A program made the translations under genes and the position numbers. Below, one piece after another: positions 45,818 to 61,404 of a DNA stretch of 64,000 nt. This stretch comes from a virus: the IMG/VR virus record IMGVR_UViG_3300025383_000010; one strand, 5' to 3'. The number at the start of each line of letters is the position of its first letter. Within the stretch, counting starts at the first letter, position 1. The notes below the pieces were generated by a model. It saw nothing but the letters and a program-made list of their open reading frames with translations. It made no database searches and had not been told where the DNA came from.

Positions 45818-45892
45818 TGGAGCGGGTGAGCGGATTCGAACCGCCGACAGCTTCGTTGGCAACGAAGGGCTCTACCACTGAGCTACACCCGC
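45818..45892 (-). tRNA. tRNA-Gly(GCC)
   Basis: Cloverleaf, CCA end. Confidence 0.9.
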
Positions 45893-46050
45893 AAGAGTGT
45901 ATTAACTTTTAGAAACACTAGTCCTGCAATAGCCTGGGTCGGGCATTTATCGTCTTTGACAGCAGTTCGTAGTGTATGACTTGCATAGCGCCCATATTCG
46001 TTAGCCTATTTGTTCGCTTGATTTCTCAAGTATGCAAGTTATCTAAACTT

Positions 46051-46124
46051 TGGAGCGGTATGCGGGAATCGAACCCGCGTACTCAGCTTGGAAGGCTGCT
46101 GCACTACCATTGTGCTAATACCGC
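46051..46124 (-). tRNA. tRNA-Gly(UCC)
   Basis: Cloverleaf, CCA end. Confidence 0.9.
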
Positions 46125-46125
46125 T

Positions 46126-46204
46126 TGGTTGCGGGGGTCGGATTTGAACCGACGATTTCCGGCTTATGAGACCAGCGAGGACGACCAGACTCCTCTACCC
46201 CACG
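46126..46204 (-). tRNA. tRNA-Met(CAU), initiator-like
   Basis: C1.A72 mismatch, CAT anticodon. Confidence 0.85.
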
Positions 46205-46211
46205 ACACTAA

Positions 46212-46270
46212 ACTATTTTGAAGAACACACAAACAATTTTGGGAGGTGCATATGTGTTCATCAAAATAGT
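46212..46270 (-). ncRNA. Closing-stem RNA A
   Basis: ACUAUUUUGA-U-GAACACA / UGUGUUC-U-UCAAAAUAGU. Confidence 0.55.
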
Positions 46271-46279
46271 CTAATATTA

Positions 46280-47125
46280 TTTATCTTTTGTACAGCCTGA
46301 GATTACAGCTTTAGACGAGTGACTTTGGTCATTACCGAATCCCTTGCGAGGACCGTTCTACCGTTATCCACTAGAGCTTGTTACAGTCATCTAGTATCAC
46401 TCAATGCTGCCTTTTTGAGAGTCTGGCGTTTGACTCGTCGCACTATGCTATTCGACCATCTATCTTTCGTTAGCCTTGCGGGCTATTCACAGTCGCTAAA
46501 CCGTTACGCTTTCTTTCCGATCAATCAGTTCGGCCTTGCGGGCTTCCCTGAACCTCATTCCCTTGCGAGTGAGGTATTAAGCACCTTTCACATAGTACCG
46601 GAGCAGTCTTTCGCTTTTGTTTATCAAATTAGGATTTGAACCTAAGCCGATCCATTAGAAGTGGATTACTCTACCGCTGAGTTATTTGCGAACCTACCAA
46701 GATGTGCTGCTCCAGTTGCTCCATACCTTGTTAGATACAGAATACAACACACCTCATGTCTTTTGCCTTGCGGGCTACTCAACCATACTTCACGGATCCG
46801 GAGCAAGTGTCCTCCTTCTTCGTTTGTATTGCTATCTTGCCTTTCCTTGCGAGGTCAGACTCAATAACTACCTGTTAACCTTCGATATTCGTCAGTTTGG
46901 CTGTACATCGTGAGAGCGCCAACCCTCTTATCTACTCACCGATTTGGCTCTGTAGACTATCCCCTTCGGGACGCTATACCTGACTTACTACCTACCGCCT
47001 TTCTACGGACGGGCCTTTCGGCTAGTTCAGGCTTGCATAGATGGACTCTTACGAGCGCAAGTTTATAGGAAACCTTGCTTTAGGCACATTACTGTGCTTA
47101 CCCTAATGAGGCTATGCCCCCAATT
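46280..47125 (-). ncRNA. Large structured RNA, GOLLD-like candidate
   Basis: ~850 nt with no credible ORF; about 9 GNRA-capped hairpins on the minus strand; dedicated promoter; adjacent to tRNAs. Confidence 0.6.
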
Positions 47126-47136
47126 CTTATATTCAA

Positions 47137-47205
47137 TTTTCAAAGAGCTAAGACAATCTCTTGTCTTGATAAACTCATTATATCAAAGTTCGTAACCGTT
47201 GTCAA
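47137..47205 (-). promoter_or_regulatory. Consensus promoter with boxB-like hairpin and boxA
   Basis: TTGACA-17-TATAAT; AAGACAA-GAGA-TTGTCTT; GCTCTTTGAAAA. Confidence 0.75.
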
Positions 47206-47491
47206 GAACTTTTTTGCCTATTTACGAAAAAAGTTTGGAAGAGAAAGAGTAAGTGATAGACAAAGCAATATGCAGCGACCAACCCAAAGGGTAAAATCTA
47301 TACACACTGAACACTAAACAAACTGCAAAATAGCGTATGTCCAAGCAAGCAATTCACAAAGTTGAATAAAGCCTGGTTCATGCTATTATAAGCGTTTCGA
47401 GCGCCGTGCTGTAAAGTATCATCCGATACCAGGGTGTCTACTCTAATCTCTCTTTCTCTCCCCGGTAACATCCGAAGATGCTACCAAACTG

Positions 47492-53905: not shown

Positions 53906-53974
53906 TTGTCAAAGACCAGAATGTGTTTCTCACTCTGTATATCTCTTTATACGACATTGTTAGAGTAATGTCAA
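53906..53974 (-). promoter_or_regulatory. Promoter with boxB-like hairpin and boxA
   Basis: TTGACA-17-TATAAA; CAGAGTG-AGAAA-CACATTCTG; GGTCTTTGACAA. Confidence 0.7.
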
Positions 53975-55516: not shown

Positions 55517-55593
55517 TGGCGTCCCCAGCAGGGCTCGAACCTGCAACCCCAAGTTTAGAAGACTCGTACTCTATCCAGTTGAGCTATGGAGAC
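55517..55593 (-). tRNA. tRNA-Arg(UCU)
   Basis: Cloverleaf. Confidence 0.9.
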
Positions 55594-59599: not shown

Positions 59600-59674
59600 G
59601 TAACCCTCGTATGGGATTCGAACCCATGTTCCCGACCTTCCCGGTCGGCGTCCTGTCCGCTAGACGAACGAAGC
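59600..59674 (-). pseudogene. Degenerate Glu-like tRNA
   Basis: D and T arms intact; anticodon loop lacks U33; no CCA. Confidence 0.55.
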
Positions 59675-60727: not shown

Positions 60728-60795
60728 ATGTCAAAGAACAGAGAGTGTTTCGCTCTCTATGTTCTCGTTATAGCAAACAACGATACCGTTGTCAA
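60728..60795 (-). promoter_or_regulatory. Promoter with boxB-like hairpin and boxA
   Basis: TTGACA-17-TATAAC; AGAGAG-CGAAACA-CTCTCT; TGTTCTTTGACAT. Confidence 0.75.
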
Positions 60796-61314: not shown

Positions 61315-61404
61315 TGGCGGAGTCGGTGAGATTCGAACTCACGGTACCCTTGCGAGTACAACACCTTTCCAGGGTGTCACAATCGGCCACTCTGTCACGA
61401 CTCC
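61315..61404 (-). tRNA. tRNA-Ser(GGA)
   Basis: Type II cloverleaf. Confidence 0.9.

Follow-up and report, generated by a model that had tools for sequence, protein, structure and literature searches.

The GOLLD family of giant phage RNAs, reportedly described by Weinberg et al. in 2009, has a further member in an uncultivated freshwater phage with 43 transfer RNA (tRNA) genes. Within the 64,000 nucleotides (nt) of IMG/VR virus record IMGVR_UViG_3300025383_000010 analysed here (the window), the minus strand from 46294 to ~47130/47170 is, with near certainty, a gene for a GOLLD RNA. The RNA measures ~840 nt without its leader (~840–880 nt overall) and has the two-domain layout of the family, its 5′ region being structured but less conserved than its 3′ region. 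The feature is real and, as a GOLLD gene, ordinary; its value lies in comparative material. Uncultivated phages supply at least 39 distinct relatives of full length, at 52 loci, from which covariation in the weakly conserved 5′ domain can be mapped densely, and the clade gives a clear statistical contrast between an embedded ‘tRNA’ and the phages’ working tRNAs.

The structure of one member of the family was solved in 2025 (PMC12286853). In electron cryo-microscopy, the env-38 GOLLD appears as a D7 14-mer nanocage, in which the 5′ domains are the caps, the 3′ domains are the rings and the linker lies inside, and the pairing of J13/15 with L20 is the intermolecular bridge B7 (Kretsch et al. 2025, PMC12286853). 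The window RNA resembles env-38 in its full-length model match, its size, its two domains, its variable linker, the J13/15–L20 complementarity and its phage-borne position in a tRNA island; in both, GOLLD adjoins a Met-tRNA. The two differ in the linker, which in the window clade mostly carries a tRNA-like module (32 of 39 relatives plus the window), whereas that of env-38 is a short disordered loop, and in the upstream region, where the window and ~10 relatives have their own consensus promoter and a hairpin/boxA-like leader.

tRNAs in GOLLD linkers are on record (PMC12286853; PMC12990946). In M. aubagnense, GOLLD lies in a horizontally acquired tRNA array and its insert was called a pseudo-tRNA (PMC6582537); in a Mycolicibacterium GOLLD, a tRNA-Phe reportedly lies in J13/15 (cited in PMC12990946). 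The mycobacterial GOLLD thus shares with the window a large tRNA cluster, HNH endonuclease genes and a tRNA or pseudo-tRNA inside the GOLLD gene, but it belongs to another host group and habitat, and it is a single case, whereas the window clade offers a within-genome contrast over ~30 relatives. Between the window RNA and the GOLLDs of the cultured roseophages DSS3P8, DSS3_MAL1 and MD18 and of the Caulobacter phiCbK-like phages, which exceed the Rfam cut-off at 151–165 bits, identity is 70–79% across P13, the linker and a portion of the 5′ domain; in DSS3_MAL1 and phiCbK the linker likewise contains a tRNA. These GOLLDs are far more remote than the relatives of the window clade, each matching less than 30% of the query. 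A permuted (alpha-type) transfer-messenger RNA (tmRNA) follows GOLLD after ~60–170 nt in DSS3P8 (L001:3277–3663) and DSS3_MAL1 (L002:3046–3462) but is absent in the window; in phiCbK (L003), a permuted tmRNA lies ~500 nt upstream of GOLLD on the opposite strand. ROOL is likewise a large, ornate RNA of phages and prophages encoded near tRNAs, and it forms an octameric nanocage, but its sequence and fold are unrelated to those of the window RNA.

When the whole window was scanned against Rfam 15, positions 46755–46294 of the minus strand matched RF02032 (GOLLD) with 207.5 bits (E = 3.4e-57), the curated gathering score being 150 bits; model positions 1–416 of 416 were aligned, with few non-canonical pairs. 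This is the sole non-tRNA match in the window, 46200–47250 included: at the Rfam gathering thresholds, ROOL, group I/II introns, RNase P RNA and tmRNA gave no match. All 12 of the 12 relatives tested likewise score above the cut-off (163–213 bits), as do the GOLLD copies of the cultured roseophages DSS3P8 and DSS3_MAL1 and of Caulobacter phage phiCbK (151–165 bits). A preliminary description of this DNA, made before any database search, had guessed at the GOLLD family, had read size, phage location and neighbouring tRNAs correctly, and had proposed comparison with Rfam by cmscan as a check; the full-length match, well above threshold, settles the family as it had supposed. Its wording, ‘GOLLD-like’ with a possible new class, was right about the kinship, whereas the new class falls away because the RNA is a true member of RF02032.

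RF02032 covers only the conserved 3′ half of the RNA; the ~375 nt upstream (47130–46756) would therefore be the variable 5′ half. Relatives were collected in three steps: the conserved 3′-end motif led to 47 viral contigs; the 5′-half motif ACAGAGCC..TCGGTGAG(T) led to 65 viral contigs and more than 120 metagenome contigs; and nhmmer with the two halves of the window found both halves in order at 52 loci, 39 of them distinct. The 5′ domain was matched by nhmmer in 72 loci. In a 40-sequence alignment of this half (A2), RNAalifold yields 96 pairs, and compensatory double changes are seen in 73 of these; of the 93 consensus pairs that can be scored in the window, 89 are retained. Because the Rfam match is thus joined by a covarying 5′ half that is kept in the window, the whole stretch is regarded as one structured RNA of the GOLLD family. 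Covariation among homologs, to which the preliminary description had looked for support, is abundant in the 5′ domain, in the helix that closes the linker and in the loop–loop pairing.

The relatives include a natural GOLLD deletion variant (L011:6463–6911), of which the identical sequence is present in L019, L029, L032 and L047, the records coming from five different metagenomes. It retains the promoter with its hairpin/boxA leader, a 5′ domain that is intact (83 of 87 consensus pairs) and the last ~65 nt of the RNA, whereas P13, the linker and the entire 3′ core of the Rfam model are gone. The deletion runs between two CGCAAGG motifs: the 5′ domain is fused at CGCAAGG to the last ~65 nt, and the downstream closing stem follows. 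No second GOLLD was found in the 259-kb record of L011, which is 73% complete. Another rearrangement is seen in L103:1824–1957 (also in L170), where a full-length GOLLD is immediately preceded by an incomplete copy of a GOLLD 3′ domain, a tandem partial duplication. The lineage with the 5′ domain only, together with the tRNA contrast described below, bears on the role of the cage and on the linker tRNA as cargo, storage or structure.

The preliminary description had also pointed to eight GNRA hairpin sites. All eight are present, and each caps a helix or sits in the loop of one, as judged from the Rfam alignment in the 3′ half and from the covariation-supported consensus fold in the 5′ half. 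The motifs on the plus strand, ten in all, are CTTGCG (46343, 46475, 46535, 46562, 46767 and 46846), CTTTCG (46464, 46608 and 47015) and CTTACG (47048); several of the loops are C-GCAA-G, pentaloop-like in the Rfam drawing. The 846 nt from 46280 to 47125 contain ten C-GNRA-G motifs on the minus strand and two on the opposite strand, against an expectation of 2.3 ± 1.4 and a maximum of 8 in 2000 dinucleotide shuffles; elsewhere in the window the minus-strand motif occurs ~0.9 times per 846 nt.

Two other accounts of the stretch were considered. It might be no more than the leader and spacer of a tRNA operon that is rich in hairpins, or else the relic of a GOLLD gene in decay that has lost its function. 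In favour are its place within a tRNA array, the failure to find an intrinsic terminator on the minus strand between 45000 and 48500, and the apparent persistence of the L011-type lineage, which is devoid of the whole 3′ core. A full-length model match with few non-canonical pairs, strong structural constraint on both domains across dozens of relatives and the near-complete set of 5′-domain consensus pairs in the window nevertheless make this very improbable. Even more remote is a small protein encoded on the plus strand. The longest open reading frame (ORF), of 106 amino acids (46319–46639), is antisense to the 3′ core, and roughly two thirds of the relatives have an open frame of ~100–120 amino acids at the corresponding position; in ~10 relatives, however, it is missing or displaced. 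Its length falls within the range of dinucleotide shuffles (p ~0.06). The sense strand is rich in purines (59% A+G), a composition that strips the antisense strand of stop codons. Substitutions are equally frequent at its three codon positions (0.24/0.27/0.21), the frame is broken by 417 of 477 gap runs, whose lengths are not multiples of 3, and Pfam has no match to it. The ORF was rejected as coding on these grounds of substitution pattern, gap frames, shuffle length and Pfam, and the earlier statement that no credible ORF is present holds. The preferred reading thus remains that of a structured GOLLD RNA.

The linker of this RNA (46698–46607) accommodates a tRNA-like element with the anticodon UCU, which the preliminary description did not mention. 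The element encodes no CCA and has two acceptor-stem mismatches, whereas CCA is encoded in 41 of the 43 tRNAs of the window and the acceptor stem is flawless in 39 of the 43; it duplicates a canonical tRNA-Arg(UCU) with CCA at 55517–55593. The helix that closes the linker exists in eight covarying haplotypes among the relatives, for example GGGGCAG/CTGTCCC, GTAGCAG/CTGCTAC and GGAGTAG/CTACTCC. At the same place in the linker, 32 of the 39 distinct relatives carry a tRNA-like element, and the contrast recurs there: CCA is encoded by 5 of 32 embedded elements but by 406 of 413 free tRNAs of the same loci (Fisher p = 8e-32), and the acceptor stem is perfect in 3 of 32 embedded elements compared with 365 of 413 free tRNAs (Fisher p = 2e-21). 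Among distant GOLLDs only one further embedded case came to light, that of DSS3_MAL1, without CCA and with two mismatches, which is too little to generalise.

The embedded elements have a conserved elbow, a disabled acceptor end and an anticodon loop that is free to vary (Lys, Arg, Leu, Ile, His, Ser and Glu types). The anticodons of the 32 relatives are CUU (10), UCU (6), UAG (5), AUG (3), GAU (2) and, once each, UUU, GCU, UUC and UAU, to which two 8-nt loops are added; the changes occur on otherwise similar, even near-identical, bodies. The five UAG (‘Leu’) elements and the GCU (‘Ser’) element have type-I bodies of 71–77 nt without a long variable arm. The first acceptor nucleotides, UUCGC, can pair with a conserved downstream GCGAA (UUUGC/GCAAA in eight relatives), an alternative pairing that would explain the ‘mismatched’ acceptor end. 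In seven relatives, including the one that is closest in the 5′ domain (L084), an unrelated insert of ~50 nt takes the place of the element; the tRNA-like module is therefore exchangeable. The tRNA array of the window contains one other tRNA call without encoded CCA, Ser(GGA) at 59603–59674 (minus strand; 72 nt, with an acceptor mismatch), whereas the Ser(GGA) at 61315–61404 is normal, with a long arm. The 72-nt call may represent a further tRNA mimic or else a pseudogene.

Because its lack of CCA and its flawed acceptor stem set it apart from free tRNAs, in the window as in the relatives, the embedded element is most likely a structural tRNA mimic that remains in the RNA, rather than a normal tRNA gene; whether the module escapes processing altogether is, in our estimate, an even matter. 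One may go further and suppose a purpose-built, processing-resistant mimic in the subunit of a shell, the shell serving as a multivalent decoy for host factors that recognise the shape of tRNA; anticodon nucleases, RNase P, modification enzymes or ribosomes could be envisaged as targets, which is speculation. This extended proposal is tentative, and its first half, the non-released structural mimic, is better supported than the decoy half. A somewhat less probable view is that of a genuine tRNA-Arg(UCU) gene in ‘inhibited storage’ within the GOLLD transcript or cage, a timed reservoir from which the tRNA would be released by RNase P and 3′ processing upon opening of the shell or decay of the RNA, with CCA added by a host enzyme. 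The storage idea is already in print (PMC12990946; PMC12286853). In its favour, the element's score of 56.4 bits is mid-range among the tRNAs of this phage, and the GG of the D-loop, the T-loop, U33 and an anticodon loop of 7 nt are all preserved in it. The relatives with CCA or a perfect acceptor stem point in the same direction. Such a gene would, however, be redundant with the canonical Arg(UCU) of the phage; 27 of the 32 embedded elements are without CCA and 29 of 32 have acceptor mismatches, while the neighbouring tRNAs almost always have CCA and a paired stem; and anticodon drift on near-identical bodies, Leu-type anticodons on short-arm bodies, two 8-nt loops and the possible competing pairing of the acceptor 5′ nucleotides with GCGAA also speak against it. 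In M. aubagnense, expression of the pseudo-tRNA within GOLLD was not detected (PMC6582537). Storage remains a serious rival of lower probability, and the structural mimic is the reading adopted below.

In the 3′ core, the pseudoknot annotated by Rfam presumably corresponds to the J13/15–L20 kissing loop. Nine of its ten positions are paired in the window, and of the 20 haplotypes of the two segments among 40 sequences, 18 reach 9/10 pairs, one reaches 10/10 and one is without the second segment in the alignment. The kept complementarity is consistent with the same assembly as in env-38, pairing between molecules and pairing within one molecule both being compatible with the sequence. By analogy, we place moderate confidence in assembly of the window RNA into a cage; if the published 14-mer is applicable, each shell would contain 14 copies of the module.

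Upstream of the RNA, the preliminary description had noted the gene’s own promoter with a boxA. A sigma-70-type promoter that agrees with the consensus in 12/12 positions and a boxA-like element are indeed present, and the promoter was read correctly; it most likely drives a unit longer than GOLLD. With at most one mismatch to TTGACA-17-TATAAT, 21 near-consensus promoters are found on both strands of the window against 0.68 expected, many with TG before the −10 box; two are perfect, the GOLLD promoter among them. The 21 point along neighbouring genes and tRNAs and, as a whole, look like a dense set of host-type promoters. The GOLLD promoter is kept in L060, L076, L084, L101 and L011. In the closest relatives, promoter, hairpin and boxA-like box are all kept before GOLLD, the boxA-like element being present upstream of GOLLD in ~10 of 39 relatives, and the stem of the hairpin covaries (CAA/TTG, CGA/TCG, CAG/CTG and AGCTAA/TTAGC). 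Exact matches to GCTCTTTGAAA number two in the window against 0.25 expected; the second follows a promoter near 60790, and the one-off variant GTCTTTGACA follows a promoter near 53969. Both of these promoters belong to the tRNA cluster (60767–60795 and 53946–53974, minus strand); downstream of each come a hairpin of the GNRA type and G(T)TCTTTGACA, as in the GOLLD leader. We take GCTCTTTGAAA to resemble the rrn boxA of E. coli, and the layout of hairpin and boxA-like element to resemble the boxB/boxA antitermination leader of rRNA operons. A leader of the rRNA type would make sense, since an untranslated RNA of 850 nt would otherwise be open to Rho termination.

In some relatives the promoter lies only 15–20 nt upstream of the 5′ domain and in others GOLLD directly follows a long closing-stem module; both arrangements suggest a mature 5′ end near 47130. 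In the window this module lies directly 3′ of GOLLD as a stem of 17–18 base pairs, ACTATTTTGATGAACACA ... TGTGTTCTTCAAAATAGT, with an insert that is unrelated between copies. It recurs with different inserts, some of them tRNA-like, after GOLLD in most relatives and before GOLLD in L053, L061, L079, L088, L090 and L103. The stem is probably a processing site or module of tRNA/GOLLD transcripts, judging from its sequence and distribution, and on this reading leader, GOLLD, stem and three tRNAs would form one promoter-driven unit. The tRNAs that the preliminary description had seen downstream are these three, at 46204–45818, which are probably co-transcribed with GOLLD; tRNA genes lie upstream as well. 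The coordinates of all features are collected in Table 1.

Table 1. Features of the GOLLD locus and its surroundings (positions in the window)
Feature	Position	Strand	Basis or remark
Sigma-70-type promoter TTGACA-17-TATAAT, TG before −10 box	47177..47205	-	12/12 consensus; predicted start near 47170
Leader hairpin AAGACAAGAGATTGTCTT	47150..47167	-	18 nt, 7-base-pair stem, GAGA loop; boxB-like in position
BoxA-like element GCTCTTTGAAA	47138..47148	-	sequence match
GOLLD 5′ domain (‘cap’ domain in solved homologue)	46756..47130	-	nhmmer and covariation
Hairpin at Rfam model start (positions 1–62); presumably P13 of published numbering	46699..46755	-	Rfam alignment
Linker-closing helix GGAGCAG (46713–46707) / CUGCUCC (46606–46600)	46600..46713	-	covariation
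tRNA-like element, anticodon UCU (Arg)	46619..46692	-	ARAGORN Arg(tct) and Rfam tRNA, 56.4 bits vs threshold of 29
Conserved GOLLD 3′ core (‘ring’ domain in solved homologue)	46294..46618	-	RF02032
Loop–loop pairing GGUACUAUGU (46599–46590) with GCAUAGUGCG (46448–46439)	46439..46599	-	Rfam pseudoknot
Long AU-rich stem with variable insert, directly 3′ of GOLLD	46212..46270	-	read from sequence
tRNA-Met(CAU), tRNA-Gly(UCC), tRNA-Gly(GCC)	45818..46204	-	all three encode CCA

Contigs from four independent aquatic metatranscriptome studies match 46299–47067 at 85–99% identity, and almost nothing in them covers the promoter region (47125–47238) or the spacer (46156–46269). One contig of 210 nt spans the 3′ core through the tRNA-like element. 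Depth over flanking coding sequence is at most 2.5-fold, in one run, and no conclusion was drawn from differences in contig depth. Joints in the contigs from 46611/46618 to 46686/46696 were not read as excision; relatives carry different inserts there.

The locus could function in the following manner. Host RNA polymerase would start near 47170, and the hairpin and boxA-like leader may shield the long untranslated transcript from early termination, as in rRNA operons. The transcript would continue through the long stem and the three tRNAs, and cleavage at the stem and the tRNAs would free an RNA of ~840 nt. Copies of this RNA may then assemble via loop–loop and A-minor contacts into a closed shell, as in env-38, with the 5′ domains as caps, the 3′ domains as rings and the linkers pointing inward. 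Each linker would carry a tRNA-shaped module without a CCA end, whose frayed acceptor end is possibly tied into the flanking helix, and the module would stay covalently attached instead of being matured into a working tRNA. The shell, at a best guess, would present or sequester tRNA-shaped RNA during infection. The explanation as a whole appears very likely, its assembly scheme being less certain than the GOLLD gene itself.

Several points weigh against this picture. The single-sequence fold of the stretch is only modestly better than that of shuffles (z = −1.9) and was not used as evidence. The cage is extrapolated from a single marine homologue, and the number of subunits may differ: a review gives the decamer as the predominant form that another GOLLD adopts when its 3′ domain is studied in isolation (PMC12990946). 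As for the module, L084 is devoid of any tRNA-like element, so that it is dispensable for the RNA as such, and with five of 32 embedded elements encoding CCA and three having flawless acceptor stems, some may be released as real tRNAs. The metatranscriptome contigs, finally, come from relatives, are blind to ends, strand and infection timing, and may include carried-over DNA.

The finding remains that of a further GOLLD member, to which useful leads are added: the many relatives available for comparing the 5′ domain, the difference of embedded from free tRNAs, the leader of rRNA type and the L011-type lineage. Two smaller observations concern the region just downstream of GOLLD. Immediately past the 3′ end of the RNA, GATAAATA (46278–46285, minus strand) resembles what we take to be a late promoter box of the T4 type, and several relatives keep ..GACTAAATAATATTAG..; it could be a putative late promoter for the downstream tRNAs, late in infection. 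The first acceptor position of tRNA-Met(CAU) (46126–46204, minus strand) is unpaired (C1/A72), presumably the hallmark of a bacterial initiator tRNA.

The 43 tRNA genes called by ARAGORN all lie on the minus strand between 45818 and 62503, and the window further encodes rIIA, a tail-fibre protein and several HNH endonucleases. Megablast with 25 kb of the window against cultured phages gave no match, so that none is a close relative in DNA sequence. Judged by rIIA, Xanthomonas phage XacN1 and jumbo phages of Stenotrophomonas come nearest among those in culture, at ~30% identity, a level at which the host cannot be named. The DNA of the window is nearly complete in several freshwater metagenome runs.

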